From: Escherichia coli
Lineage (GTDB): Bacteria > Pseudomonadota > Gammaproteobacteria > Enterobacterales > Enterobacteriaceae
DNA length: 64,000 nt
Direction: 5' to 3' (one strand)
Assembly: GCF_044647545.1 (NCBI RefSeq)
Contig: NZ_CP172818.1
Under the pieces are notes generated by a model. The model was not told where the DNA came from and did not search any database. It saw only the letters and a list, made by a program, of their open reading frames with translations. The position numbers were made by a program, and so were the translations under genes. Shown piece after piece: positions 1 to 31,912 of the stretch; positions within the stretch are counted from its first letter, which is position 1; every line of letters begins with the position of its first letter.

Positions 1-454
1 ACCGGTGATCTTGCAGCGTCTGCGCAGTTCGGGAGAATTACCCACGGCGCTGCGGACATCACTCGGCATTCAGCTCGCTCCTGCGCTGGTGGCCTGTAGT
101 GCCTGGCTGAGCGTCAACGGCGGCGAGGGTGACACGCTGGCGAAAATGCTTTTCGGTTATGGACTGCTGCAACTGCTGTTTATGCTACGTCTGATGCCAT
201 GGTATCTCTCCCAGCCATTTAATGCTTCATTCTGGAGTTTCTCGTTCGGCGTATCTGCACTGGCAACCACCGGTTTGCATCTGGGGATTGGCAGCGATAA
301 TGGATTTTTCCATACGCTGGCGGTGCCGCTGTTTATCTTTACCAATTTTATTATTGCAATACTGCTCATCCGTACTTTTGCGCTTCTGATGCAGGGAAAA
401 TTGTTAATCAGAACCGAGCGCGCCGTTTTAATGAAAGCAGAGGACAAAGAATGA
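1..454 (+). CDS. tehA: Tellurite-resistance / dicarboxylate-type transporter TehA, C-terminal part (5' end lies outside window)
   Basis: ORF 5..454 is open to the window edge; hydrophobic membrane segments; its stop overlaps the next start (ATGA). Confidence 0.85.
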
Positions 455-1044
455 TCATTCGTGACGAAAACTATTTTACTGATAAATATGAATTAACCCG
501 CACACACTCTGAAGTGCTGGAAGCGGTGAAAGTGGTTAAACCGGGTAAAACGCTGGATCTGGGCTGTGGCAATGGTCGTAACAGTCTTTACCTGGCAGCC
601 AATGGTTATGATGTTGACGCATGGGATAAAAATGCCATGAGTATCGCCAACGTCGAGCGCATTAAGTCCATTGAAAATCTGGATAATTTACACACCCGGG
701 TCGTTGATCTGAATAACCTCACATTTGATGGACAGTACGATTTTATTCTTTCGACTGTGGTGCTGATGTTCCTTGAGGCTAAAACCATCCCAGGGCTGAT
801 TGCCAATATGCAACGTTGCACTAAACCTGGCGGTTACAACCTGATTGTGGCGGCGATGGATACCGCTGATTATCCATGTACCGTCGGCTTCCCGTTTGCC
901 TTCAAAGAGGGAGAATTACGTCGATATTACGAAGGCTGGGAGAGGGTGAAATACAATGAAGACGTCGGCGAGCTGCACCGCACCGACGCCAACGGTAATC
1001 GTATTAAACTGCGTTTCGCCACGATGCTGGCACGTAAAAAATGA
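451..1044 (+). CDS. tehB: Tellurite methyltransferase TehB (SAM-dependent)
   Basis: 197-aa ORF with SAM-binding motif [15 protein letters not shown]; translationally coupled to tehA. Confidence 0.93.
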
Positions 1045-1346
1045 CCCGCTAAGAACAAGGCGCGTGAAAATTCCCCCCGCTGAGATGGTTTACTGTTCTT
1101 CTTTTCGGTAAGCATAATTTTTATCGAAGGGATGTGAAATTAATCACAGTAGTCGAAGTTTTTTAGCAGCTTAACTTACTGAAATTTAACTACTGATGAT
1201 TGACTTAGCCCCTTTTTCGGCATTGACTATGTCGTCTGTAAAGGGGCTGAAAAATTTATTTTCACCAACACTTTTTTTGCCACAACACGAAGCGGCGCTT
1301 TTTGCTATAACTTAAAAAGTAATATAATCATCTCAGGAAACTATTC

Positions 1347-2015
1347 ATGCGTACCACATCAATTGCGAAAGTTGCAGCTTTATGCGGCTTGTTGGCTCTG
1401 TCTGGTTGTGCCTCTAAAATCACCCAGCCAGATAAATATTCTGGTTTTTTAAACAATTACTCTGATTTAAAAGAAACAAATTCTGCAACGGGTAAACCTG
1501 TTTTACGTTGGGTAGACCCGAGTTTTGATCAAAGCAAATATGACAGCATCGTCTGGAACCCAATCACTTATTATCCGGTACCGAAACCTTCAACCCAGGT
1601 AGGGCAGAAAGTTCTGGATAAAATTTTGAACTATACCAACACCGAAATGAAAGAAGCGATAGCGCAGCGTAAACCACTGGTTACCACCGCTGGGCCGCGT
1701 AGTCTGATTTTCCGTGGGGCCATTACCGGTGTAGATACCAGCAAAGAAGGGCTGCAATTCTATGAAGTGGTTCCTGTTGCATTAGTGGTTGCGGGGACGC
1801 AAATGGCTACAGGCCACCGTACCATGGATACTCGCTTGTATTTTGAAGGTGAGCTGATTGATGCAGCGACTAATAAACCGGTTATCAAAGTCGTTCGTCA
1901 GGGCGAAGGTAAAGACCTGAATAACGAAAGTACGCCAATGGCTTTCGAAAATATTAAACAAGTTATTGATGACATGGCGACCGATGCCACCATGTTTGAC
2001 GTTAACAAAAAGTAG
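1347..2015 (+). CDS. ydcL: Lipoprotein YdcL
   Basis: 222-aa ORF; signal peptide with lipobox LALSGC. Confidence 0.9.
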   Translation: MRTTSIAKVAALCGLLALSGCASKITQPDKYSGFLNNYSDLKETNSATGKPVLRWVDPSFDQSKYDSIVWNPITYYPVPKPSTQVGQKVLDKILNYTNTEMKEAIAQRKPLVTTAGPRSLIFRGAITGVDTSKEGLQFYEVVPVALVVAGTQMATGHRTMDTRLYFEGELIDAATNKPVIKVVRQGEGKDLNNESTPMAFENIKQVIDDMATDATMFDVNKK

Positions 2016-2023
2016 TTCCAGAC

Positions 2024-2050
2024 GCGCCATCGTTAGATGGCGCTTTTTAT
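2024..2050 (+). terminator. Rho-independent terminator downstream of ydcL
   Basis: GC stem gcgccatc / gatggcgc with loop gtta, followed by TTTTTATT. Confidence 0.8.
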
Positions 2051-2269
2051 TAACTGTAAAGGTTTCTCTTCTTTTTTCTTCAAATGCCAAAACCCTTATA
2101 ATCTCTCAATACTGTCGCTCCAAACCTACTCTTCTTTTCGCGTCCCAGTTATAGTTATTAACAATCTCTTCCCATCCATTCAACACACTCAAACGCAATA
2201 CATTAAGTATTTCCCTCATCAAAAATCTGATCGTATGTGACAAAGACCGTGAACACACAGGAAAACACA

Positions 2270-3487
2270 TGCCTTCCACGCCGATACGTTTCTTCACAGA
2301 CCAAAGTCATTTGCCTGTGAAACACTACAGCATTTAAATCCATTAGCCCGTGTCAAAGAGCGTGAAATGGCGCTTCCGGCGCATGTCGTTTCGTTTCAAT
2401 CTCTCTGGCACGTCAGAAGAGAATCATGAGCCGTAATAAATACATCCCTTACGGGAAAATGCTTCCTCTGTTGAGTGAAAAACGCCACGAAACCAATGCT
2501 AAAGATCGCCCTCACAGCCATTCAACACACTGAAAGACCTTGAGCGCTTAAAAAACTTCTCCAGAAGCCTGCTTTTCCCCGATCAAAAAGCGGGGACAGA
2601 AGATGCATTCGCTACCCGCAGGGCGTTAAGCTCGACAGGAAAACAGCCGTATTTTTCGCCGAAACTTGGCTGGATGCGCTACCGGAATAGCCGTCAGGTC
2701 ACGGGTGTGTGAAAAATGTCACTGTCAGCCAGTCCTGCGTAAGGTACATCAGTATCAGACTGAAAATGAAGTATCAACTCCGTTCACCCTTCAGCATCAA
2801 TGGTCGGCTGGAGCGCGGGCTAAACTCGCCACGCTGTCAGAGCAAGCTTTGACCTGAAACAGTTTTCAGAAAAACCAGAAGAAGCTGGCGAGACTTCAGC
2901 GACAGTTAAGCCGCAAGGTCAAATTCAGCAATAACTGGCAGAAGCAGAAACGCAAAATACAGCGACTGCATCCTGTACGCAAATATCCGCAGGGACTACC
3001 TTCACAAAGTCACAACGACCGTCAGCAAAAACCACGCAATGATAGTCATTGAGGATTTGAAGGTCAGCAACATGTCAAAGTCAGCAGCGGGTACGGTCAG
3101 CCAGCCGGGGCGCAATGTCCGGGCAAAATCAGGTTTAAACCGTTCGATACTGGATCAGGGCTGGTATGAAATGCGCCGCCAGCTTGAGTACAAGCACCTG
3201 GCGTGGCGGTCAGGTGCTTGCTGCCGCCAGCGTACACAAGCCAGCGTTGCGCGTGCTGTGGTCATACAGCGAAAGAAAATCGCCTGTCACAAAGTAAATT
3301 CAGATGCCAGCATGTGGATATACAGCGAACGCCGATGAAATGCCTCGTAACATTTTAGCGGCGGGGCACGCCGTTCTTGCCTGTGGAGAGATGGTGCATC
3401 AGCCGCTCGTTGAAGCAGGAACCCCCCGAAATGATTTAGCGACAGCCTGAACGTAGCAGGGATCCACGTCCTTCAGGGCGTGAGGAT
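2270..3487 (+). mobile_element. Partial IS200/IS605-family element (IS609-like) carrying only a decayed tnpB; no tnpA
   Basis: TnpB-like coding signal spread over three frames; putative right-end hairpin cacgtccttcagggcgtg at about 3465..3482, directly abutting the ydcO stop. Left boundary is uncertain. Confidence 0.6.
2520..3440 (+). pseudogene. insQ: tnpB (insQ-like) RNA-guided-nuclease-family accessory gene, disrupted by multiple frameshifts
   Basis: TnpB motifs are read in different forward frames: FNTLKDLERLKNF, IRYPQGVKLD, KLGWMRYRNSRQVTGV, QKNQKKLARLQRQLSRKVKFSNNWQKQKRKIQRLH, then ANIRRDYLHKVTTTVSKNHAMIVIEDLKVSNM (RuvC-like IVIEDL), then YTSQRCACCGHTAKENR and ACGYTANA...NILAAGHAVLACGEMV (Zn finger). 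No forward ORF over 100 aa exists here. Confidence 0.75.
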
Positions 3488-4663
3488 TCAATATCGGTTT
3501 CTGTCAGCGATTAAATTCAACACCACGTAACAAACGCCTCCGGCAATTAATCCCCAAAACGCAGAACCAATCCCGGCCAGCGTCAATCCACTTGCCGTTA
3601 CCAGAAATGCCACCACCGCCGCGTCGCGCTCACGCTCATTATGCAGCGCCTGATACAAACTGCCGCCAATGGTACTCAACAGCGCCAGACCTGCCAGCAT
3701 CTGGATCCAACTTACGGGCAGGGCAGCCATCATCCCGGTAATGGCACTACCAAACAGACCTGCGAGCAAATAGAAAATGCCTGCAACGGCAGCTGCCAGC
3801 CAACGTTGATCTTTATCCGGATGCGCTTCCGGGCTTTGGCAAATAGCCGCGGTGATTGCCGCAATACCGACGGAATAAACGCCGAAAGGGGAAAAAACCA
3901 GTGCCAGCAATCCAGTAAATACAATTAATGGCGAAACAGGAGCCGAATATCCGGCTGCTTTCATTGCTGCGATACCCGGTGCGTTTTGCGATGCCATCGT
4001 CACCAGAAAAAGGGGGAGTGCAACGCTCAGGCTGTGAGCAAACGAAAAATCAGGGCTAATATAAGTGGGGAGAACGGGTTTAAAGACAACATCAGTTGTG
4101 ACAACGTCACCTTGCGCGATAACGATCACGCCCCCAATAATCATCGCGGCAATTACCGCATAGCGCGGCGCAACGGCCCTGGTTGCCAGCCATACCAGCA
4201 ACATACTGCCACACAACGTAAATTGACCATCCAGGCTCGCAAACGCCTGTAAACCAAAGCGTAATAAAATCCCGGCAAGCATTGCCGCCGCAAGCGAGTG
4301 CGGAATAATGCGCATCAGACGAGCAAAGAGTCCCGTTATGCCGCAGAGGACTATTAACGCGTTGGTGACAATAAAAACGCCGATGGTTTCGTTAAGTGTT
4401 AGTCCCTGCAATCCGGTGACCAACAAAGCCGCGCCAGGCGTTGACCATGCGGTGAGAACAGGTACGCGATACCATAATGTCAGAGCCAGCGTACTGACGC
4501 CCATTGCCAGCCCCAGCGCCGTCATCCAGCCAGAGATTTGTGCAGTGGTGGCTCCGGCGACAATCGCTGCTTGCCAGATTATTGCCGCTGAACTGGCGTA
4601 GCCAATTAATACCGCCAGAAACCCCGCCAGTAGCGTGGGCGGAGGAATAGAAAACAGACGCAT
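3488..4663 (-). CDS. ydcO: BenE-family inner-membrane transporter YdcO
   Basis: ORF 3488..4786; start placed at the internal Met (MRLFSIPPP...) giving 391 aa; highly hydrophobic. Confidence 0.85.
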   Translation of the reverse strand: MRLFSIPPPTLLAGFLAVLIGYASSAAIIWQAAIVAGATTAQISGWMTALGLAMGVSTLALTLWYRVPVLTAWSTPGAALLVTGLQGLTLNETIGVFIVTNALIVLCGITGLFARLMRIIPHSLAAAMLAGILLRFGLQAFASLDGQFTLCGSMLLVWLATRAVAPRYAVIAAMIIGGVIVIAQGDVVTTDVVFKPVLPTYISPDFSFAHSLSVALPLFLVTMASQNAPGIAAMKAAGYSAPVSPLIVFTGLLALVFSPFGVYSVGIAAITAAICQSPEAHPDKDQRWLAAAVAGIFYLLAGLFGSAITGMMAALPVSWIQMLAGLALLSTIGGSLYQALHNERERDAAVVAFLVTASGLTLAGIGSAFWGLIAGGVCYVVLNLIADRNRY

Positions 4664-4754
4664 AGTCACCTCGTGCGTTATAGCATACAGGCACCGTAGC
4701 ATTTGTCCGTTATAACGCACAAGTGATAAACTTACGTTTTGCCGGAGGAGTCGC

Positions 4755-5291
4755 ATGGAAAATCTCGCTCGCTTTTTATCCACCACACTTAAACAACTAC
4801 GTCAGCAGCGCGGCTGGAGTCTTTCGCGACTGGCAGAAGCGACGGGCGTTTCTAAAGCGATGTTAGGGCAGATTGAGCGTAATGAATCCAGCCCGACGGT
4901 CGCGACATTATGGAAAATAGCCACCGGGTTGAACGTGCCATTTTCGACATTTATTTCTCCGCCGCAGTCCGCAACGCCTTCAGTTTATGATCCACAACAA
5001 CAGGCGATGGTGATCACTTCGCTGTTTCCTTATGATCCACAACTCTGCTTTGAACACTTCTCGATTCAGATGGCACCCGGTGCAATAAGCGAATCGACGC
5101 CCCATGAGAAGGGAGTAATCGAACATGTTGTCGTCATTGATGGGCAACTTGATCTGTGCGTTGATGGTGAATGGCAGAGCCTTAATTGTGGGGAAGGCGC
5201 TCGATTTGCTGCAGACGTCACGCATGTCTATTGTAATGGTGGGGAGCAAATCGTACATTTTCATTCCCTCATCCATTACCCACGCAGTTAA
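4755..5291 (+). CDS. ydcN: XRE-family HTH regulator with cupin domain, YdcN
   Basis: 178-aa ORF; HTH_XRE segment LRQQRGWSLSRLAEATGVSKAMLGQIERNESSPTVATLWKIA; divergent from ydcO. Confidence 0.9.
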   Translation: MENLARFLSTTLKQLRQQRGWSLSRLAEATGVSKAMLGQIERNESSPTVATLWKIATGLNVPFSTFISPPQSATPSVYDPQQQAMVITSLFPYDPQLCFEHFSIQMAPGAISESTPHEKGVIEHVVVIDGQLDLCVDGEWQSLNCGEGARFAADVTHVYCNGGEQIVHFHSLIHYPRS

Positions 5292-5363
5292 GCGGGAAAA
5301 CTATTTCGCAACGTCGCGCTTGTGGCTAAAATAGCCGCCATTTTTCAGCTACTGGATAAGAAT

Positions 5364-7325
5364 GTGACCGTATCTTCTCATCGACTTGAACTGTTAAGCC
5401 CGGCACGCGATGCCGCCATTGCCCGCGAAGCTATTTTGCACGGTGCCGATGCTGTTTATATCGGCGGCCCTGGTTTTGGTGCCCGTCATAATGCCAGTAA
5501 TAGCCTGAAAGATATTGCCGAGCTGGTGCCGTTTGCCCATCGTTATGGTGCAAAAATTTTCGTCACGCTTAACACAATTTTGCATGATGATGAGCTGGAA
5601 CCCGCGCAACGGCTGATTACTGACCTCTACCAGACCGGCGTCGATGCGCTGATTGTTCAGGATATGGGGATTCTGGAACTTGATATTCCGCCGATTGAAC
5701 TGCACGCCAGTACGCAGTGCGATATTCGCACAGTAGAAAAAGCGAAGTTCCTCTCTGATGTTGGCTTTACGCAGATTGTGCTGGCGCGAGAGCTGAATCT
5801 TGAGCAGATCCGCGCGATTCACCAGGCCACGGACGCGACCATTGAATTCTTTATTCATGGCGCACTGTGCGTGGCCTATTCGGGTCAGTGCTACATTTCT
5901 CATGCGCAAACAGGGCGTAGCGCCAACCGTGGCGATTGCTCGCAGGCGTGCCGTTTGCCATACACATTGAAAGACGATCAGGGGCGGGTGGTTTCCTATG
6001 AAAAACATCTGCTGTCGATGAAAGATAACGATCAGACTGCCAACCTCGGCGCGCTGATTGATGCTGGCGTACGCTCCTTCAAGATTGAAGGGCGTTACAA
6101 AGATATGAGCTACGTGAAGAATATCACCGCCCATTATCGCCAGATGCTGGATGCCATTATTGAAGAACGTGGCGATCTGACGCGTGCTTCATCAGGTCGT
6201 ACTGAACATTTCTTTGTTCCATCGACGGAAAAGACTTTCCACCGTGGTAGCACAGATTATTTTGTGAATGCCCGTAAAGGCGATATTGGCGCGTTCGATT
6301 CGCCGAAATTTATCGGCCTGCCGGTGGGCGAAGTATTGAAAGTAGCGAAAGATCATATTGATGTTGCCGTTACCGAGCCACTGGCAAATGGCGATGGCCT
6401 GAACGTGATGATTAAACGTGAAGTCGTCGGTTTTCGTGCCAATACGGTCGAGAAAACCGGAGAAAATCAGTACCGCGTCTGGCCCAATGAAATGCCAGCA
6501 GATTTGCACAAAATTCGCCCGCATCACCCACTAAACCGTAATCTTGATCATAACTGGCAGCAGGCACTGACAAAAACCTCCAGCGAACGTCGGGTGGCGG
6601 TAGACATTGAACTGGGCGGCTGGCAGGAACAACTGATTCTGACCCTCACCAGTGAAGAGGGTGTCAGCATCACGCATACGCTGGACGGGCAGTTCGACGA
6701 AGCCAATAACGCCGAAAAAGCAATGAACAATCTAAAGGATGGTCTGGCAAAACTGGGGCAAACCATCTATTACGCCCGCGATGTGCAAATTAATTTGCCG
6801 GGTGCGCTGTTTGTACCAAACAGTCTGTTAAACCAGTTCCGCCGTGAAGCCGCCGACATGCTGGATGCTGCACGTCTTGCCGGTTACCAGCGGGGCAGCC
6901 GTAAACCGGTTGCTGATCCTGCGCCGGTTTATCCGCAAACGCATCTGAGTTTCCTCGCGAACGTATACAACCAGAAAGCGCGTGAATTTTATCATCGCTA
7001 TGGTGTGCAACTGATTGACGCGGCGTATGAGGCACATGAAGAGAAGGGCGAAGTCCCGGTGATGATCACCAAGCATTGTCTGCGCTTTGCCTTCAATCTG
7101 TGCCCGAAACAGGCGAAAGGCAATATCAAAAGCTGGAAGGCGACGCCAATGCAACTGGTTAACGGCGATGAAGTATTAACGCTAAAGTTTGATTGCCGCC
7201 CATGCGAGATGCACGTCATTGGCAAAATCAAAAATCACATACTGAAAATGCCGTTACCGGGAAGCGTAGTGGCATCCGTAAGTCCGGATGATCTGCTGAA
7301 AACATTGCCGAAGCGAAAAGGGTAA
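5364..7325 (+). CDS. ydcP: Peptidase-U32-family protein YdcP (RlhA, 23S rRNA 5-hydroxycytidine synthase)
   Basis: ORF 5322..7325; GTG start at 5364 would give the 653-aa length I recall. Start is uncertain by 14 codons. Confidence 0.8.
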   Translation: MTVSSHRLELLSPARDAAIAREAILHGADAVYIGGPGFGARHNASNSLKDIAELVPFAHRYGAKIFVTLNTILHDDELEPAQRLITDLYQTGVDALIVQDMGILELDIPPIELHASTQCDIRTVEKAKFLSDVGFTQIVLARELNLEQIRAIHQATDATIEFFIHGALCVAYSGQCYISHAQTGRSANRGDCSQACRLPYTLKDDQGRVVSYEKHLLSMKDNDQTANLGALIDAGVRSFKIEGRYKDMSYVKNITAHYRQMLDAIIEERGDLTRASSGRTEHFFVPSTEKTFHRGSTDYFVNARKGDIGAFDSPKFIGLPVGEVLKVAKDHIDVAVTEPLANGDGLNVMIKREVVGFRANTVEKTGENQYRVWPNEMPADLHKIRPHHPLNRNLDHNWQQALTKTSSERRVAVDIELGGWQEQLILTLTSEEGVSITHTLDGQFDEANNAEKAMNNLKDGLAKLGQTIYYARDVQINLPGALFVPNSLLNQFRREAADMLDAARLAGYQRGSRKPVADPAPVYPQTHLSFLANVYNQKAREFYHRYGVQLIDAAYEAHEEKGEVPVMITKHCLRFAFNLCPKQAKGNIKSWKATPMQLVNGDEVLTLKFDCRPCEMHVIGKIKNHILKMPLPGSVVASVSPDDLLKTLPKRKG

Positions 7326-7370
7326 AACGTCAGTTTTCGGGTTACTCACCACTCATCAAATCTGCATGAT

Positions 7371-7412
7371 ATTGCCTGGCGGGTAAGGCGTCATGCCGCA
7401 TCCGGCAACAAA
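7371..7412. repeat. REP-like palindromic element
   Basis: gcctggcgggtaaggcgtcatgccgcatccggca resembles REP units; lies between the convergent ydcP and yncJ. Confidence 0.5.
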
Positions 7413-7416
7413 TGAC

Positions 7417-7647
7417 TCAACGCTGTCCCGCTTCTGGTTTGCGCGATTTTTGCCAGTAAAAATGCTCGCGCAAACCTTCCGCCGACTCTTCCGCCACAGC
7501 ACGCAATTCATCGCTGTCCGCTTCATGACGCAGCTGATGATCCACATTCTTTACCCACATAAATTCATGTCCTTTGTGCCCTGCCATGAGTTGTCCTGAG
7601 AACAGTGCACACGTTAATAAGACAACCGATAACGCCTTCGAAAACAT
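7417..7647 (-). CDS. yncJ: Small secreted protein YncJ
   Basis: 76-aa ORF with N-terminal signal peptide MFSKALSVVLLTCALFSGQLMA. Confidence 0.8.
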   Translation of the reverse strand: MFSKALSVVLLTCALFSGQLMAGHKGHEFMWVKNVDHQLRHEADSDELRAVAEESAEGLREHFYWQKSRKPEAGQR

Positions 7648-7868
7648 CCCGCCACCTTTTTCTAACCTTTTGCCGCTATGATGCCAATCGTTTCTTGAGG
7701 TTATTATTCAGTTTTGCAAATTAGCGCAAAGAAATTCTGGAATCTTCCTTCCTGATTTTGCATTGCATTCTGCCGTTGCGGCGATTTAGTGCTATTTTCG
7801 AGCAAATTACACACGGAGGTAAACACTAATGTTTACTTTGTTGATATACTCAGCGGCAGGGAGGCGAT

Positions 7869-8045
7869 GTGAAACAAAGCGAGTTCAGACGTTGGCTCGA
7901 ATCTCAGGGCGTCGATGTAGCGAATGGCAGCAACCATTTAAAACTGAGGTTTCATGGGAGGCGCAGTGTCATGCCGCGTCACCCCTGCGATGAGATTAAA
8001 GAACCATTGCGTAAAGCAATCCTGAAACAACTCGGTTTGAGTTAA
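7869..8045 (+). CDS. hicA: HicA mRNA-interferase toxin (type II TA)
   Basis: Hand-translated 58-aa GTG-start ORF (absent from the track): MKQSEFRRWLESQGVDVANGSNHLKLRFHGRRSVMPRHPCDEIKEPLRKAILKQLGLS; directly upstream of hicB. Confidence 0.85.
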   Translation: MKQSEFRRWLESQGVDVANGSNHLKLRFHGRRSVMPRHPCDEIKEPLRKAILKQLGLS

Positions 8046-8069
8046 TCGCCAATTAAAAAGGTTAATGAC

Positions 8070-8507
<438 letters not shown>

Positions 8508-8585
8508 TTACAGTTAACGAAAAGTTGTCATTTTTAACAACTGATATAGACTGCCGAATCATCTGCACATAATTACGATTCGATA

Positions 8586-9992
8586 ATGAAAAAATACCAG
8601 CAGCTTGCAGAACAATTACGCGAGCAGATTGCGTCGGGTATCTGGCAACCCGGCGATCGTTTGCCTTCGTTGCGTGACCAGGTGGCGCTTTCTGGCATGA
8701 GCTTTATGACCGTGAGCCATGCCTATCAGTTGCTCGAAAGTCAGGGATATATTATCGCGCGACCGCAGTCGGGTTATTACGTTGCGCCACAGGCAATAAA
8801 AATGCCGAAAGCGCCAGTCATTCCAGTCACTCGAGATGAAGCAGTCGATATCAACACCTATATTTTTGATATGTTGCAGGCCAGTCGCGATCCGTCGGTA
8901 GTTCCGTTTGCCTCGGCCTTTCCCGACCCGCGACTTTTCCCCCTCCAACAACTAAACCGCTCGCTGGCGCAGGTAAGCAAAACCGCCACGGCGATGAGCG
9001 TGATTGAAAACTTACCGCCAGGAAACGCAGAACTGCGTCAGGCTATTGCTCGTCGCTATGCCTTACAGGGCATCACCATTTCTCCTGATGAAATTGTCAT
9101 TACTGCCGGGGCGTTAGAGGCATTAAACCTCAGTTTGCAAGCGGTAACTGAACCGGGCGATTGGGTGATAGTAGAGAATCCTTGTTTCTACGGCGCGTTG
9201 CAGGCGCTGGAGCGGTTACGGCTGAAGGCGTTATCGGTGGCGACGGACGTTAAAGAAGGGATAGATCTTCAGGCGCTGGAACTGGCGTTGCAGGAGTATC
9301 CGGTGAAAGCGTGCTGGCTGATGACTAATAGCCAGAATCCACTCGGATTTACCTTAACACCGCAAAAAAAAGCACAACTGGTGGCGTTGCTCAATCAGTA
9401 CAACGTAACGCTGATTGAAGATGACGTATACAGCGAACTTTATTTTGGACGGGAAAAACCGCTGCCTGCGAAAGCGTGGGATCGCCACGATGGCGTTTTG
9501 CATTGCTCTTCGTTTTCGAAATGTCTGGTGCCTGGTTTTCGTATTGGTTGGGTCGCCGCCGGAAAACATGCACGTAAAATTCAACGCTTGCAGTTGATGA
9601 GTACGCTTTCCACCAGCTCACCGATGCAGCTTGCGCTGGTGGATTACCTTTCCACGCGCCGATACGACGCCCATCTTCGTCGCCTGCGTCGCCAGCTTGC
9701 GGAACGTAAACAACGTGCCTGGCAGGCACTGCTGCGTTATCTGCCTGCGGAAGTGAAAATTCATCATAATGACAGCGGTTATTTTCTCTGGCTGGAGCTC
9801 CCCGCGCCGTTAGATGCGGGCGAATTAAGCCTGGCAGCACTGACGCATCATATCAGTATTGCGCCGGGTAAAATGTTTTCTACCGGTGAAAACTGGTCAC
9901 GTTTTTTCCGTTTTAATACCGCGTGGCAGTGGGGAGAACGTGAAGAACAGGCGGTTAAACAATTAGGCACACTTATTCAAGAACGGCTGTAA
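8586..9992 (+). CDS. ydcR: MocR/GntR-family regulator with aminotransferase-like domain, YdcR
   Basis: 468 aa; N-terminal GntR HTH; PLP-lysine context SFSKCLVPGFRIGW. Confidence 0.9.
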   Translation: MKKYQQLAEQLREQIASGIWQPGDRLPSLRDQVALSGMSFMTVSHAYQLLESQGYIIARPQSGYYVAPQAIKMPKAPVIPVTRDEAVDINTYIFDMLQASRDPSVVPFASAFPDPRLFPLQQLNRSLAQVSKTATAMSVIENLPPGNAELRQAIARRYALQGITISPDEIVITAGALEALNLSLQAVTEPGDWVIVENPCFYGALQALERLRLKALSVATDVKEGIDLQALELALQEYPVKACWLMTNSQNPLGFTLTPQKKAQLVALLNQYNVTLIEDDVYSELYFGREKPLPAKAWDRHDGVLHCSSFSKCLVPGFRIGWVAAGKHARKIQRLQLMSTLSTSSPMQLALVDYLSTRRYDAHLRRLRRQLAERKQRAWQALLRYLPAEVKIHHNDSGYFLWLELPAPLDAGELSLAALTHHISIAPGKMFSTGENWSRFFRFNTAWQWGEREEQAVKQLGTLIQERL

Positions 9993-10236
9993 TAGCGTTT
10001 AATTTAATTCCTCTCAGGTTGGGTAATATGAATTTCGAATAGCAGTCATATTTCCTAACTCCTTGTCTATACTCCAGAAGATAACCTTACAGACGGCATA
10101 ATGCGCGGTAGCTCACAACCTGATTAAATTTTCTCAGGGGCGAAGGTGTGCCTGCAAGCCGCCGTCTATGGTTAAACAAGGAGATATTTTTACGGCACGG
10201 CGGCTGAACAATTAATTACGACAGGAGTAAGACTTT

Positions 10237-11382
10237 ATGAGCAAGACATTTGCCCGCAGCAGCCTGTGTGCGCTTACCATGACATTAATGACCGCCCACG
10301 CCGCCGAACCTCCCACAAATTTAGATAAACCGGAAGGGCGACTGGATATTATCGCCTGGCCGGGATACATCGAACGCGGACAAACTGATAAACAATACGA
10401 CTGGGTAACGCAATTCGAAAAAGAGACAGGCTGCGCGGTGAATGTGAAAACCGCCGCGACTTCCGATGAAATGGTCAGTCTGATGACCAAAGGGGGTTAC
10501 GATCTGGTTACGGCATCCGGCGATGCCTCGCTGCGCCTGATTATGGGCAAACGCGTGCAGCCGATTAATACCGCATTGATTCCCAACTGGAAAGCGCTCG
10601 ATCCGCGCGTGGTTAAAGGCGACTGGTTTAACGTTGGCGGCAAAGTTTACGGCACACCTTACCAATGGGGGCCGAACCTGCTGATGTACAACACTAAAAC
10701 CTTCCCGACGCCGCCGAATAGCTGGCAAGTGGTTTTTGTTGAGCAGAATCTGCCGGACGGCAAGAGCAATAAAGGCCGCGTTCAGGCTTATGATGGCCCT
10801 ATCTACATTGCGGACGCTGCGTTGTTCGTTAAAGCCACTCAGCCACAGTTGGGCATCAGCGATCCGTATCAACTCACCGAAGAACAGTACCAGGCGGTGC
10901 TGAAAGTGCTGCGCGATCAACATAGTTTGATCCATCGCTACTGGCATGACACTACCGTGCAAATGAGCGATTTCAAAAACGAGGGTGTGGTTGCTTCCAG
11001 TGCATGGCCCTATCAGGCCAACGCCCTGAAAGCCGAAGGCCAGCCTGTCGCTACCGTTTTCCCGAAGGAGGGCGTTACCGGTTGGGCTGATACCACCATG
11101 CTACATAGCGAAGCGAAACATCCGGTTTGCGCCTACAAATGGATGAACTGGTCATTAACCCCAAAAGTGCAGGGCGATGTAGCGGCCTGGTTTGGCTCGC
11201 TACCGGTAGTGCCGCAAGGGTGTAAAGCCAGTCCGTTATTAGGCGAGAAAGGTTGTGAAACAAACGGTTTTAACTATTTCGATAAAATCGCCTTCTGGAA
11301 AACGCCTATCGCAGAAGGGGGCAAGTTTGTTCCCTACAGTCGCTGGACGCAGGATTACATTGCCATTATGGGTGGTCGCTAA
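10237..11382 (+). CDS. ydcS: ABC transporter periplasmic substrate-binding protein YdcS (polyamine-type)
   Basis: 381 aa; signal peptide ending AHA; first gene of ydcSTUV. Confidence 0.9.
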   Translation: MSKTFARSSLCALTMTLMTAHAAEPPTNLDKPEGRLDIIAWPGYIERGQTDKQYDWVTQFEKETGCAVNVKTAATSDEMVSLMTKGGYDLVTASGDASLRLIMGKRVQPINTALIPNWKALDPRVVKGDWFNVGGKVYGTPYQWGPNLLMYNTKTFPTPPNSWQVVFVEQNLPDGKSNKGRVQAYDGPIYIADAALFVKATQPQLGISDPYQLTEEQYQAVLKVLRDQHSLIHRYWHDTTVQMSDFKNEGVVASSAWPYQANALKAEGQPVATVFPKEGVTGWADTTMLHSEAKHPVCAYKWMNWSLTPKVQGDVAAWFGSLPVVPQGCKASPLLGEKGCETNGFNYFDKIAFWKTPIAEGGKFVPYSRWTQDYIAIMGGR

Positions 11383-11399
11383 CTTCGCTGGGGTGTTTT

Positions 11400-12413
11400 A
11401 TGACGTACGCAGTGGAGTTTGACAACGTCTCACGGTTGTACGGTGACGTGCGCGCAGTAGATGGCGTCAGTATTGCGATAAAAGATGGTGAGTTCTTCTC
11501 TATGCTGGGGCCGTCCGGTTCCGGCAAAACCACCTGCCTGCGCCTGATTGCTGGATTCGAACAACTTTCCGGCGGGGCTATCTCTATCTTTGGTAAACCC
11601 GCCAGCAATCTGCCACCGTGGGAGCGGGACGTGAATACTGTCTTCCAGGACTACGCGCTATTTCCGCATATGTCGATTCTTGACAACGTCGCCTACGGGC
11701 TGATGGTCAAAGGCGTGGATAAAAAACAGCGGCATGCGATGGCGCAAGAGGCGCTGGAGAAAGTGGCGCTGGGTTTTGTTCAGCAACGTAAACCGTCACA
11801 ACTTTCTGGTGGTCAGCGCCAGCGGGTTGCTATCGCCAGAGCATTGGTGAATGAACCGCGTGTGTTGTTGCTGGATGAACCGCTCGGCGCACTGGATCTC
11901 AAATTGCGTGAGCAGATGCAACTGGAACTGAAAAAGCTGCAACAGTCTCTCGGTATCACTTTTATCTTCGTTACCCACGATCAGGGCGAAGCGTTATCGA
12001 TGTCCGATCGTGTGGCGGTTTTCAATAATGGACGCATTGAGCAGGTCGATTCCCCGCGTGATCTCTATATGCGCCCGCGCACGCCGTTTGTTGCCGGGTT
12101 CGTCGGGACATCGAATGTTTTTGATGCACTGATGGCAGACAAACTTTGTGGCATGACGGGAAGCTTCGCCCTGCGACCGGAACATATCCGCTTCAACATC
12201 CCCGGCGAAGTGCAGGCTAATGGCACGATCCAGGCGGTGCAGTATCAGGGCGCGGCGACCCGTTTTGAACTGAGACTGAACGGCGGTGAAAAACTGCTGG
12301 TGAGTCAGGCCAATATGACAGGCGAAGAACTGCCCGCCACACTCACGCCCGGAAAACAGGTGATGGTTTCCTGGTCGCGTGATGTGATGGTACCGCTGGT
12401 TGAGGAGAGGTGA
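11400..12413 (+). CDS. ydcT: ABC transporter ATP-binding protein YdcT
   Basis: 337 aa; Walker A GPSGSGKTT, ABC signature LSGGQRQRVAIARAL, Walker B LLLDEP. Confidence 0.93.
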   Translation: MTYAVEFDNVSRLYGDVRAVDGVSIAIKDGEFFSMLGPSGSGKTTCLRLIAGFEQLSGGAISIFGKPASNLPPWERDVNTVFQDYALFPHMSILDNVAYGLMVKGVDKKQRHAMAQEALEKVALGFVQQRKPSQLSGGQRQRVAIARALVNEPRVLLLDEPLGALDLKLREQMQLELKKLQQSLGITFIFVTHDQGEALSMSDRVAVFNNGRIEQVDSPRDLYMRPRTPFVAGFVGTSNVFDALMADKLCGMTGSFALRPEHIRFNIPGEVQANGTIQAVQYQGAATRFELRLNGGEKLLVSQANMTGEELPATLTPGKQVMVSWSRDVMVPLVEER

Positions 12414-26474: not shown

Positions 26475-28108
26475 ATGTCGACTCGCTTATCCACCCTCAG
26501 CCATACCAGTGAAGGCCACCGCGTGTCGGTCCACTACGGCTATGACGATAAAGGCCGCCTGACCGGCGAACGCCAGACGGTGGAGAACCCGGAGACGGGG
26601 GAACTGCTGTGGCACCATGAGACCGGACATGCGTACAACGAACAGGGGCTGGCAAACCGCGTCACGCCGGACAGTCTGCCGCCGGTGGAGTGGCTGACCT
26701 ACGGCAGCGGCTATCTTGCGGGCATGAAGCTGGGCGGGACGCCGCTGCTGGAGTTCACGCGCGACCGCCTGCACCGTGAGACGGTGCGCAGCTTCGGCAG
26801 CATGGCAGGCAGTAATGCCGCATATAAACTGACCAGCACATACACCCCCGCAGGCCAGTTACAGAGCCAGCACCTGAACAGCCTGGTGTATGACCGTGAC
26901 TACGGGTGGAATGACAACGGCGACCTGGTGCGCATCAGCGGCCCGCGACAGACGCGGGAATACGGCTACAGCGCCACGGGCAGGCTGGAGAGTGTGCGCA
27001 CCCTCGCACCAGACCTGGACATCCGCATCCCGTATGCCACGGACCCGGCGGGCAACCGGCTGCCGGACCCGGAGCTGCACCCGGACAGTACACTCACAGT
27101 GTGGCCGGATAACCGCATCGCGGAGGATGCGCACTATGTCTACCGCCACGATGAATACGGCAGGCTGACGGAGAAGACGGACCGCATCCCGGCGGGTGTG
27201 ATACGGACGGACGACGAGCGGACCCACCACTACCACTACGACAGCCAGCACCGCCTGGTGTTCTACACGCGGATACAGCATGGCGAGCCACTGGTCGAGA
27301 GCCGCTACCTCTACGACCCGCTGGGACGGCGAATGGCAAAACGGGTCTGGCGGCGGGAGCGTGACCTGACGGGGTGGATGTCGCTGTCGCGTAAACCGGA
27401 GGTGACGTGGTATGGCTGGGACGGAGACAGGCTGACGACGGTGCAGACTGACACCACACGTATCCAGACGGTATACGAGCCGGGAAGCTTCACGCCGCTC
27501 ATCCGGGTCGAGACAGAGAACGGCGAGCGGGAAAAAGCGCAGCGGCGCAGCCTGGCAGAGACGCTCCAGCAGGAAGGGAGTGAGAACGGCCACGGCGTGG
27601 TGTTCCCGGCTGAACTGGTGCGGCTGCTGGACAGGCTGGAGGAAGAAATCCGGGCAGACCGCGTGAGCAGTGAAAGCCGGGCGTGGCTTGCGCAGTGCGG
27701 GCTGACGGTGGAGCAACTGGCCAGACAGGTGGAGCCGGAATACACACCGGCGCGAAAAGTTCATTTTTACCACTGCGACCACCGGGGCCTGCCGCTGGCG
27801 CTCATCAGCGAAGACGGCAATACGGCGTGGCGCGGGGAGTATGATGAATGGGGCAACCAGCTTAATGAGGAGAACCCGCATCACCTGCACCAGCCGTACC
27901 GTCTGCCAGGGCAGCAGTATGATAAGGGAGTCGGGCTGGTACTTATAACCGTCACCGGTACTACGATCCGTTGCAGGGGCGGTATATCACCCGGGACCCG
28001 ATTGGGTTGAGAGGTGGATATGGATATGTATCAGTATCCGTTGAATCCCATACAAGTGATAGACCCAATGGGGTTAGATGCGATTGAGAATATCATAATA
28101 TCAGGCTA
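26475..28108 (+). pseudogene. rhsE: Rhs element remnant (rhsE): C-terminal part of the Rhs core with two frameshifts and a 10-aa tip
   Basis: YD repeats ([24 protein letters not shown]). Near 27935 the conserved end [25 protein letters not shown] is in another frame; frame returns for [16 protein letters not shown] (PxxxxDPxGL) followed by only [10 protein letters not shown] before the stop. GC-rich core against AT-rich flanks. Confidence 0.85.
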
Positions 28109-29200
28109 ATTAATTTATGCCGTATCTGGTGTACCTGGATTGATTGCTGCAAACAGCATTACTAACAGTGCTTACCAGTTCGGTTATGATATGGATGCTA
28201 TTGTTGGCGGAAGCTCATAATGGGGCCGCCGATGCAATGAGACATATCGTCACTTGATGTGTCGAATGACTAAGACATTTGGATCAAACAATAGCTGACG
28301 TGATAGGAAAAATCATGAGGCGGCAGGGATAACAAGGTCAGCCAGCTAAAGAAAAGTAATCATGGATCTAAAAAATAACACTGTCGGTATTGCTTGTGGC
28401 GATTTTTGGCCAAATGTAGCGATGATGTATTGTAAAATATAACACTGGGAAAACTCTTCGGGTTAGATGGTATAAAAGCAGATAACTCCAATAAAAACAA
28501 AGCAAGGGAGTTTCAGACGCTTCAAATTATTAGAGGCAAACTTGTCATTTTTTTTAATTACCCTTTGTTTATTTGTTGTTTACAATCTTCTGGGTTTGAT
28601 AACAATTCAAATTCTTGATATTGTCATTTTATGGACATAAATACCTAAAGAGCGTTGAGATATCTTTCTGAAAAAAATATTATTTATAAAATAATTAATG
28701 ACCAAAAAATTAGTAGAGGGAATGGTCATTTTATAAGTATAATGGTTAATAATTACAGGACGCACTGTGGAGTGGTTGATAAACTTAATTTTTTCAATGA
28801 TATTCTTTATAGCGTGCGATTAAAAAACATTAAAGCAAACTTGCAGAATATGGAGTTCTGCGCTAAAAAATAATGCGTATTTTAGTGATAAAAACAAGAA
28901 GGCTAGTTATAAAATAATTAATTATGGAGAACTATCACGATGTTGATTATTATGATAACAATTTGAAAAATGAAGCTTTTTGACTGGATTGGTAAATGGT
29001 CATAATGAACAACACCAGAAAGTAGAAAAATATAAAATACATACAGAAGATACTAGAAGCAAGGGACGGGCAGGGCAATATTATGAAAATTGTGATGTAA
29101 AATCACGATTTTCATCTTGGCTTGAACGCTAGCAGGCTATTAAAATTTAACCTTTGGATAAATGGAAAAAGATAAAAAAGGACCAAGTGATATTTTAAGT
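28109..29200 (+). other. AT-rich region of decayed short ORFs downstream of the Rhs tip
   Basis: Fragments such as VSGVPGLIAANSITNSAYQFGYDMDAIVGGSS and the 72-aa ORF 28655..28873; nothing intact. Interpretation as toxin/immunity remnants is inference from Rhs locus architecture. Confidence 0.35.
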
Positions 29201-29204
29201 TTGC

Positions 29205-30135
29205 TTGATTATATTTAGCTATCTCTATATACGACAACAAGGAAGCTTAAACATAAATCTATCCGCTATTTTGTTTCTCACCGTATGTGAGAATTGCGAG
29301 GCCCATGAGTGGCAGGAAATTGAAGATTTTGGACATGAAAGACTTGAATGGCTAAAGAAATATGGTGATTTTGATAATGGGATTGCGGTCGATGACACCA
29401 TTGCACGCGTTGTGAGTAACATTGACAGTTTGGCCTTTGGAAGATGTTTATTGAATGGATGCAGGAGTGCCATGAAATCACTGATGGTGAAATTATAGCA
29501 ATAGATGGAAAGACCATAAGAGGCTCCTTTGATAAGGAAAGAAAAGGAGCAATCCATATGGTGAGTGCATTCTCAACCAAATGGTGTTGTACTCCGGCAG
29601 GCGAAACGGAAGCCAAAAGTAATGAGATTACAGCCATTCCACAGTTGCTTAACCTACTGTATTTAAAGAAAATTTTGATAACCATCGACGCTATGGGCTG
29701 TCAGAAAGATATCGCTTCGAAGATTAAAAGATAAAAAAGCAGATTATCTTCTGGCAGAAAAGGCAATCAGGGGAAATTACATCATGCATTCGAGGAAAAA
29801 TTTCCTGTAAATGTGTTTTCTAATTATAGGCGATTCGTTTAGTACGCAGGAGATAGTCATGGAAGAAAAGAAACACGTTTTCATATTGTAGTAACGTAAC
29901 GCCTGAACTTTTGTGATTTTGAATTCAATGGAAGGGATTAAAAAAGCTTTGTGTAGCATTGTCATTCAGGCAGAAGAAAGAAGATAAATCAGCAGAAGGT
30001 GTAAGCATCCGATACTATATTTCATCAAAGGATATGGATGCTAAAGAATTTGCACATGCTATCAGAGCGCACTGGCTGATCGAGCACAGTCTTCATTGGG
30101 TGTTAGATGTAAAAATGAATGAAGATGCCGCCGGA
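29205..30135 (+). pseudogene. yncI: H-repeat-associated (ISAs1-family) transposase remnant (yncI-like), multiply disrupted
   Basis: Fragments ([38 protein letters not shown]; IIAIDGKTIRGSFDKERKGAIHMVSAFS...; C-terminal [20 protein letters not shown]) parallel the adjacent ydcC copy but are broken by stops and frameshifts. Confidence 0.7.
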
Positions 30136-30397
30136 TAAGAAGAGGAAACGCAGCCTAAATAATATCTGGAATAAAGAAGATGGCACTGAATTTATTAAGA
30201 GATTGCAAAGACATTAAGGGTGAAGAGGAAAAGAAAGAAGGCTGCGTTAAACACAGGGAAAGATCATCAGAAGTTCACTTTTTGTACTAAATAATTCGCA
30301 TTTTATGTTTAAAAATTGAGATATTCCTCATTACCTGAAGCTGTTTTTTATTGCTTATACATGATCAAATACTCCTTACATAATTAAGGAGAACAAA

Positions 30398-31533
30398 ATG
30401 GAACTTAAAAAATTGATGGAACATATTTCTATTATCCCCGATTACAGACAAGCCTGGAAAGTGGAGCATAAATTATCGGACATTCTACTGTTGACTATTT
30501 GTGCCGTTATTTCTGGTGCAGAAGGCTGGGAAGATATAGAGGATTTTGGGGAAACACATCTCGATTTTTTGAAGCAATATGGTGATTTTGAAAATGGTAT
30601 TCCTGTTCACGATACCATTGCCAGAGTTGTATCCTGTATCAGTCCTGCAAAATTTCACGAGTGCTTTATTAACTGGATGCGTGACTGCCATTCTTCAGAT
30701 GATAAAGACGTTATTGCAATTGATGGAAAAACGCTCCGGCACTCTTATGACAAGAGTCGCCGCAGGGGAGCGATTCATGTCATTAGTGCGTTCTCAACAA
30801 TGCACAGTCTGGTCATCGGACAGATCAGGACGGATGAGAAATCTAATGAGATTACAGCTATCCCTGAACTTCTTTACATGTTGGACATTAAAGGAAAAAT
30901 CATCACAACTGATGCGATGGGTTGCCAGAAAGATATTGCAGAGAAGATACAAAAACAGGGAGGTGATTATTTATTCGCTGAAAATGAAACCAGGGGCGGC
31001 TAAATAAAGCCTTCGAGGAAAAATTTCCGCTGAAAGAATTAAATAATCCAGAGCATGACAGTTACGCAATGAGTGAAAAGAGTCACGGCAGAGAAGAAAT
31101 CCGTCTTCACATTGTTTGCGATGTCCCTGATGAACTTATTGATTTCACGTTTGAATGGAAAGGTCTGAAGAAATTATGCGTGGCAGTCTCCTTTCGGTCA
31201 ATAATAGCAGAACAAAAGAAAGAGCCAGAAATGACGGTCAGATATTATATCAGTTCTGCTGATTTAACCGCAGAGAAGTTCGCCACAGCAATCCGAAACC
31301 ACTGGCACGTGGAGAATAAGCTGCACTGGCGTCTGGACGTGGTAATGAATGAAGACGACTGCAAAATAAGAAGAGGAAATGCAGCAGAATTATTTTCAGG
31401 GATACGGCACATCGCTATTGATATTTTGACGAATGATAAGGTATTCAAGGCAGGGTTAAGACGTAAGATGCGAAAAGCAGTCATGGACAGAAACTATCTG
31501 GCGTCAGTCCTTGCGGGGAGCGGGCTTTCGTAA
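30398..31533 (+). pseudogene. ydcC: H-repeat-associated (ISAs1-family) transposase YdcC, split by a single frameshift near 30995
   Basis: ORFs 30398..31003 (201 aa) and 31069..31533 (154 aa) are the N- and C-halves; the joining segment [31 protein letters not shown] reads in a different frame. Confidence 0.8.
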
Positions 31534-31718
31534 TCTTTCCCTGGAGTGGCAAAGAACTGGTGGTGAATAATCCCGTTATTAGCAGACTTTTAACAATATG
31601 ATTAAGCTGCATCTTAAGCGTCTCCAGAATGGACTTTTATTGGGGGTATTTACGGATAAAAATTTTTGTGAGGGGAAAAATAAATATAATGGGCGTTAAT
31701 AAATTGGCAAGCCGGGAA

Positions 31719-31787
31719 TTTTTTTTTTTTTAATGGCATGTTGGCAAAAAATATATTCTGCAAGTTTTTTTTTTTGGCTTTTTTTTT
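31719..31787. repeat. Three homopolymeric T tracts (T13, T11, T9) within about 70 bp
   Basis: Read directly: ...gggaa t13 aatgg..., ...caag t11 ggc t9 aaaagg...; between the ydcC end and pptA. Confidence 0.9.
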
Positions 31788-31912
31788 AAAAGGGTGTAAA
31801 ACAAACCTGTACAAATTCAAGTAGGCATTATTGCCGTAAAAAAGCATCACCGGACACATAACATTCACAACGTGTGTTAATTTTACTGACATCTTTCAAA
31901 AGGAGCACAATC

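Follow-up and report, generated by a model that had tools for sequence, protein, structure and literature searches.

The 64,000-nt stretch of E. coli DNA analysed here (the window) carries, at positions 2051..3491 between ydcL and ydcO, a 1,441-bp copy of the insertion sequence IS609 (IS200/IS605 family) that differs from an intact 1,748-bp copy at another chromosomal site by deletions only. We think it probable that these deletions are an artefact at the level of the sequence record, or an artificial degradation of it, and that the real locus holds either an intact, recent IS609 of the type found between yjfZ and ytfB or no element at all. Judged by its sequence, the element is a known IS609 at its usual E. 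coli site, and it adds nothing new to what is known of TnpB and of the guide RNA.

The gene order at the start of the window (tehA', tehB, ydcL, ydcO on the minus strand, sutR, rlhA) is that of E. coli K-12, where the ydcL-ydcO interval also houses IS609, with a minus-strand tnpA pseudogene and an intact insQ/tnpB (formerly ydcM) that encodes 402 aa. Using the element with 300 bp of each flank as query and requiring at least 80% of it to be covered, we found IS609 between ydcL and ydcO in approximately 3,251 of 5,426 complete E. coli genomes, so that an occupied interval is the majority state. By blastn, window positions 2219..3491 aligned with IS609 at 91.9% (gaps counted), and at the nucleotide level the IS609 homology spans the whole region. 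In strain ST648, which is 100% identical to the window over 1..2052 and 99.98% identical over 3492..11900, the site is empty. It reads ...GCGCTTTTTAT^TATCGGTTTCTG... (TTTTTAT^TATCGG), and ydcL and ydcO are just 34 bp apart.

In the window, IS609 sits in the T-tract of the ydcL terminator and starts directly after TTTTTAT, the target TTAT occupying 2047..2050, and its right junction is ...GAGGAT-TCAA^TATCGG, the same as in K-12 and in the IS609 between yjfZ and ytfB. All 15 of the 15 best flank matches begin at window position 3492. The K-12 and yjfZ-ytfB copies begin directly after TTTAT and end in ...GGATGTCAA, TTTAT thus terminating the left flank at both IS609 sites examined. The comparison of the empty ST648 site with the occupied one, together with the TTTAT at the second site, reveals insertion 3' of TTAT with no target-site duplication; IS608 and ISDra2 likewise insert 3' of a fixed tetranucleotide and leave no duplication of the target. 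The window copy shares with the K-12 element its insertion point (TTTTTAT^ ... TCAA^TATCGG), its orientation, the 1,748-bp architecture and an IS-supplied stop codon for ydcO. The K-12 element differs in its complete left end and intact InsQ/TnpB, and also by 32 SNPs at positions retained in the window, so that the window copy does not come from the K-12 lineage of the locus.

The right end of IS609 determines where ydcO stops. In empty-site strains YdcO is 390 aa long and ends in ...NR, and its TAA stop codon overlaps the TTAT target. In the window, the IS609 bases TCAA give ydcO a TGA stop (3488..3490, minus strand) plus one extra C-terminal Tyr. An earlier note on this DNA, made by reading its letters, had described an IS remnant wedged against the ydcO stop codon; this was right and if anything understated, as the final four bases of IS609 contain this TGA. 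In every IS609-occupied genome examined, the TGA stop codon of ydcO and the additional Tyr come from the right end of IS609. An exact protein look-up found the identical 391-aa YdcO on seven natural contigs, and all those reaching past the ydcO junction have a K-12-type right end, with CP092815.1 garbled there. In this complete genome (GCA_022531175.1) an N is present and the right end of IS609 reads TTNATGCTCCACG where TTGACATCCTCCACG is expected; its ydcO junction illustrates how a record can go locally wrong at an IS609 repeat boundary. The features of the region are collected in Table 1.

Table 1. Features in and around the IS609 copy between ydcL and ydcO (window coordinates).
Feature	Position	Strand	Basis
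ydcL intrinsic terminator (hairpin 2024..2043 plus T-tract)	2024..2050	+	terminator scan
Left-end IS609 scraps	2051..2065	+	pure-deletion alignment to the GN02270 IS609
tnpA (Y1 transposase) remnant	2066..2310	-	mapped from intact O157 tnpA
tnpB/insQ remnant, GTG start at 2317	2317..3438	+	mapped to intact copy
Longest ORF, 99 aa, with RuvC-II motif IVIEDL	3039..3338	+	
Kink-turn-like stem CCUGUGGAG...UGAAGCAGGAA, presumed guide-RNA scaffold	3380..3421	+	Rfam, sub-threshold
Right-end subterminal imperfect palindrome CACGTCCTTCAGGGCGTG, kept	3465..3482	+	sequence, reference alignment
IS609 final bases TCAA	3488..3491	+	junctions compared: K-12, GN02270, O157, ST648
ydcO, BenE-family transporter, 391 aa, ends ...NRY	3488..4663	-	
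Would-be guide flank of an IS609 guide RNA	3492..3511	+	inferred from TnpB guide-RNA architecture

The earlier note had placed a tnpB-only remnant of the IS200/IS605 family at 2270..3487. It was correct about the family, the orientation and the right end, and also in seeing that the region does not code; no TnpB could be made from this sequence. The tnpB homology is borne out by the alignment to IS609 tnpB/insQ and by fragment matches to the NCBIfam profile guided_TnpB; that the region might not be homologous to tnpB, which the note had allowed for, is ruled out by the alignment. Its span and gene content need correction. The element runs from 2051 to 3491, and its tnpB starts only at 2317; positions 2270..2316 are the tnpA 5' end and a 6-nt spacer that separates the divergent tnpA 5' end from tnpB. 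Nor is tnpA missing, since a remnant of it survives on the minus strand next to the left-end scraps. This remnant is 245 nt long, has lost 188 of 432 bases and is unreadable as a Y1 transposase. Weak blastn matches to annotated tnpA fall at 2219..2300, and an NCBIfam scan of the minus-strand ORF 2106..2297, which overlaps the remnant, gave no match.

In the tnpB remnant, 65 deletion events remove 75 bases. The reading frame is broken, as previously proposed, and far more often than the 'at least six' changes then counted, with 64 of the 65 events being frameshifts. The longest ORF (99 aa) lies mostly inside a deletion-free stretch (2978..3196) and matches positions 290-330 of guided_TnpB (E 2e-10), and a 51-aa ORF with the CxxC zinc finger (3203..3358) matches positions 341-371 (E 5e-6); these fragments score 40.5 and 26 bits, under the cutoff of 100. 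TnpB motifs do occur in three different forward frames, namely IVIEDL (E), the CxxC finger and the C-terminal 'ANAD...NILAAGHAV' (third-Asp region), but they are not all present as had been stated, for the RuvC-I first-Asp motif GLDAG is destroyed in all frames. The window copy thus holds no continuous TnpB ORF with a RuvC D-E-D triad and zinc finger.

The two ends have fared differently. The right-end hairpin is kept and lies 6 nt away from the stop codon of ydcO, in agreement with the few base pairs first reported. The left-end hairpin (CCCCGTCCTTCAGGGCGGGG), to which TnpA has to bind, is lost, with 17 of its 20 bases missing, leaving a subterminal palindrome at one end only; TnpA could therefore not excise the element, even if supplied in trans. 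In the paradigm of IS608 and ISDra2, a Y1 TnpA and subterminal hairpins are combined with a TnpB that has a right-end guide RNA. The intact IS609 parent resembles these elements in having similar imperfect palindromes at both ends, a tnpB with RuvC domain and zinc finger, and a presumed guide-RNA scaffold that overlaps the tnpB 3' end, whereas the window copy has no left hairpin and neither of its genes can be read. As written, the element has no function, neither tnpA nor tnpB being readable; it is a member of the IS200/IS605 family by descent and, again as written, immobile.

By formal test, all 1,441 nt of the copy are a strict subsequence of the 1,748-bp IS609 of GN02270, which is located between yjfZ and ytfB. 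The two differ by 133 deletion events (307 bases), 0 substitutions and 0 insertions, and the SNP states of the window copy match those of the GN02270 copy at every retained position. At least 60 complete genomes (GN02270, 118UI and at least 58 others) share the GN02270-type copy, flanks included, with 100% identity. It agrees with the window copy at all 1,441 retained bases and differs in its chromosomal site, its intact 398-aa TnpB and its freedom from deletions. The same test was false for the IS609 copies of K-12, O157 and EC21Z and for two metagenome copies, which have 17-32 SNPs at the retained positions.

The lost bases are skewed both in kind and in place. Over reference positions 601-1748 they comprise 32 G, 25 T, 3 C and 0 A, so that G and T account for 57 of 60 losses in a stretch with a G+T content of 48% (binomial P = 2.5e-15). 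Loss thins out steadily towards the right. In successive 150-nt bins that start at the left end, the share of missing G is 0.91, 0.83, 0.57, 0.35, 0.31 and 0.13 in the first six bins and 0.12, 0.06, 0, 0.02, 0.07 and 0.16 in the remaining six; the left third is the worst-hit part of the element and the right third the least damaged. Losses within homopolymer runs of two or more bases are mildly enriched (56% versus 43% expected), and since this homopolymer enrichment is only mild we rejected polymerase slippage as their source. This is not the spectrum of a natural pseudogene, in which substitutions are at least as frequent as indels, indels of both types occur, no base or strand is singled out and the changes are shared with relatives. 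A pseudogene that had aged to the point of 133 indels would have many substitutions and some insertions, and relatives would share it.

None of the 5,426 complete genomes of E. coli has the deleted version. A set of 15 billion proteins was searched for exact copies of ten ORFs, the 99-aa one and nine others from 2037..3450, and contained none of them, and a 24-mer spanning two window-specific deletions gave 0 matches in metagenome contigs. A reconstructed intact parent at ydcL-ydcO had no match above 98.8% among the complete genomes. An intact IS609 of the window's SNP type is thus never seen at ydcL-ydcO in complete genomes, and the 'true' state of the locus is itself a prediction. With zero substitutions, an empty site in the closest relatives by flank and a version that no other genome shares, the deletions are not the outcome of evolutionary decay. 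The description of the element as a decayed remnant in the earlier note therefore finds no support: the damage is graded and consists of deletions alone, and the flanks are identical to those of empty-site strains.

From the observed homology, boundaries, deletion-only spectrum and absence elsewhere, we infer a cause of the deletions that lies in the record. Bases would have dropped out through a fault in assembly, gap filling or consensus, or through in-silico degradation, whether deliberate or accidental. The real chromosome would then carry either an intact, very recent IS609 insertion at a hot spot or the empty site of its nearest relatives. That the frameshifts might be assembly errors had been named at the outset as something that would overturn the first interpretation, and is now the leading explanation. 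Two points speak against such a fault. The deletions come as close as 5 nt to the junction beyond which the DNA is unique, and this is hard to reconcile with a simple filling of gaps between short-read contigs by long reads. We also know of no sequencing platform with deletion-only, G/T-only errors that lack miscalls. The simple idea of an unpolished repeat in a hybrid assembly is disfavoured by the closeness of the deletions to the junction, and was rejected also because the multi-copy ISAs1 (30254..31543) is identical to ST648 while adjacent unique DNA is garbled.

Outside variable regions the window is 99.98-100% identical to ST648 (compared up to 57424). Two patches, at 27918..30130 and 31649..31800, have no near-identical counterpart in the 5,426 genomes. 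The first covers an rhs tip, ydcD and an ISAs1-family pseudogene; its best match in a complete E. coli genome is 94.4%, its ydcD ORF is broken, and a look-up of the 511-aa Rhs-tip ORF gave no match. Compared with strains 1303 and BHUCD02 it has approximately 78 substitutions (transitions about as frequent as transversions), together with deletions in 29 events and insertions in 26, while the two strains differ from each other in this region by just 10 substitutions and 1 indel. The second is intergenic, upstream of pptA, with 22 differences from ST648 in 150 bp and a best complete-genome match of 93.6%. Here nearly all changes are from G/C or mixed bases to T or A, giving runs of 9-13 T, and this looks like homopolymer 'smoothing' and not like natural variation. 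Two further differences from ST648 are of another kind. At 26491..30254 the window has a K-12-like rhsE/ydcD/H-repeat block in place of a vgrG-ISEc1 segment, and at 44306..44621 approximately 2.5 kb of an LRR/ompC-like region are missing, so that the source strain is related, not identical, to the ST648 genomes of the collection. Taken with the IS609 copy, the two garbled patches make three differently flavoured unnatural patches in an otherwise pristine window, which points to a problem with the record and not to biology.

Alternatively, the DNA may be real as written. A recent IS609 would then have been riddled in vivo by approximately 130 micro-deletions through a polar process confined to one strand, and would now be inert. 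Copying with gross errors, from a damaged template or from the single-stranded intermediate of transposition, would be an example. Consistent with this, the IS609 junctions are exact (TTAT on the left, ...TCAA on the right) and the deletions stop exactly at the borders of the element. Moreover, the plus strand, which lost G and T, is the strand that IS200/IS605 elements move as single-stranded DNA, transposition of the top strand in this form being known from IS608. We nevertheless regard such a process as unlikely. The other unnatural patches lie outside any IS609, the losses resemble an independent dropping of single bases and not slippage, and no second example was found among the 5,426 genomes, the protein set and the metagenome contigs. 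Substitutions dominate the mutation spectra of E. coli, and to our knowledge no polymerase or repair pathway strips 18% of the bases from a 1.75-kb tract without substitution.

A reading close to that of the earlier note, in which an old, natural, tnpB-only remnant yields from its right end a stable guide-like RNA usable by an intact TnpB elsewhere, appears to us highly improbable. Zero substitutions relative to an extant copy and flanks identical to empty-site strains exclude a long residence, and the presence of tnpA and left-end scraps contradicts a tnpB-only origin. In its favour, the damage is lowest in the right third of the element, where the right hairpin and a stem resembling the Rfam family RAGATH-18 are intact and score as they do in the intact copy. 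The RAGATH-18 match has 29.6 bits in the window and 29.5 in the intact copy, against a gathering score of 44.9, and two bases are missing from the loop of the kink-turn-like stem. At the 3' end of intact IS609, sub-threshold matches to RAGATH-18, HgcC (25.2) and sot0042 (18.1) all fall within the same 180 nt; the last two, which we take to be archaeal RNAs overlapping tnpB 3' ends, are absent from the window copy. None of the Rfam models appears to cover a guide RNA of the IS609 type. In the guide RNAs of IS607 TnpB (reRNA; Ren et al. 2024, PMC11061315), RAGATH-18 forms the core of the scaffold; it has been reported only with IS607 TnpB, where it is located outside the ORF (PMC11061315). The window motif shares the kink-turn-like core of this reRNA but scores below its threshold, has 15-17 nt in place of an internal 44-nt segment and lies inside the tnpB coding region; it therefore bears a family resemblance to RAGATH-18 and is not a member.

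Three further observations speak against a persisting RNA. Nine bases, each lost singly, are missing from the last 250 nt, in the presumed guide-RNA region that extends from the tnpB 3' end to the right end; the losses fall between positions 3309 and 3487, and two lie between the hairpin and the end of IS609. A promoter scan of window positions 1950..3600 found no promoter-like site on the plus strand. The segment 3330..3491 folds no better than shuffled sequence (z -0.8), compared with z -1.7 for the intact copy, which forms the same local hairpins; the two scores are of little information. Natural IS609 copies differ by at most 2% and are too alike to show covariation. A literature search on TnpB guide RNA in connection with IS609 or insQ returned nothing specific, and the literature searched held no RNA or activity data for IS609. 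The suggestion that a right-end RNA could outlast the TnpB protein thus gains no backing, and as the sequence stands nothing supports a surviving right-end RNA from this copy. The would-be guide flank is antisense to the 3' end of ydcO, and the same would hold for any guide RNA made from this copy.

Fainter still, as a special case of the DNA being real, is the prospect that the record is faithful and that a newly arrived IS609 lost G and T from its top strand with a probability that fell from the left end onwards. A candidate for a polar loss of this kind would be the skipping of lesions on a single-stranded transposition intermediate, or a second-strand synthesis that is extremely prone to error. 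The idea that the tnpB likeness is due to chance or low complexity, with no IS present, is refuted by the strict-subsequence relation of all 1,441 nt to IS609, the exact junctions and the NCBIfam TnpB matches.

The practical value of the IS609 copy, if its deletions arose in the record as we propose, is as a warning: what appears to be an ancient transposon relic can be unmasked quickly by testing if deletions alone would derive it from a living copy. The basis of any pseudogene or 'relic RNA' claimed from this record would be a probable artefact. Should the sequence be reproduced, however, the graded, G/T-only and substitution-free pattern would indicate that single-strand transposons can undergo a mutational process not known so far. 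A polar loss of top-strand G and T, if true, would then represent a previously unknown inactivation of an arriving IS200/IS605 element, either by the host or by the transposition reaction itself.
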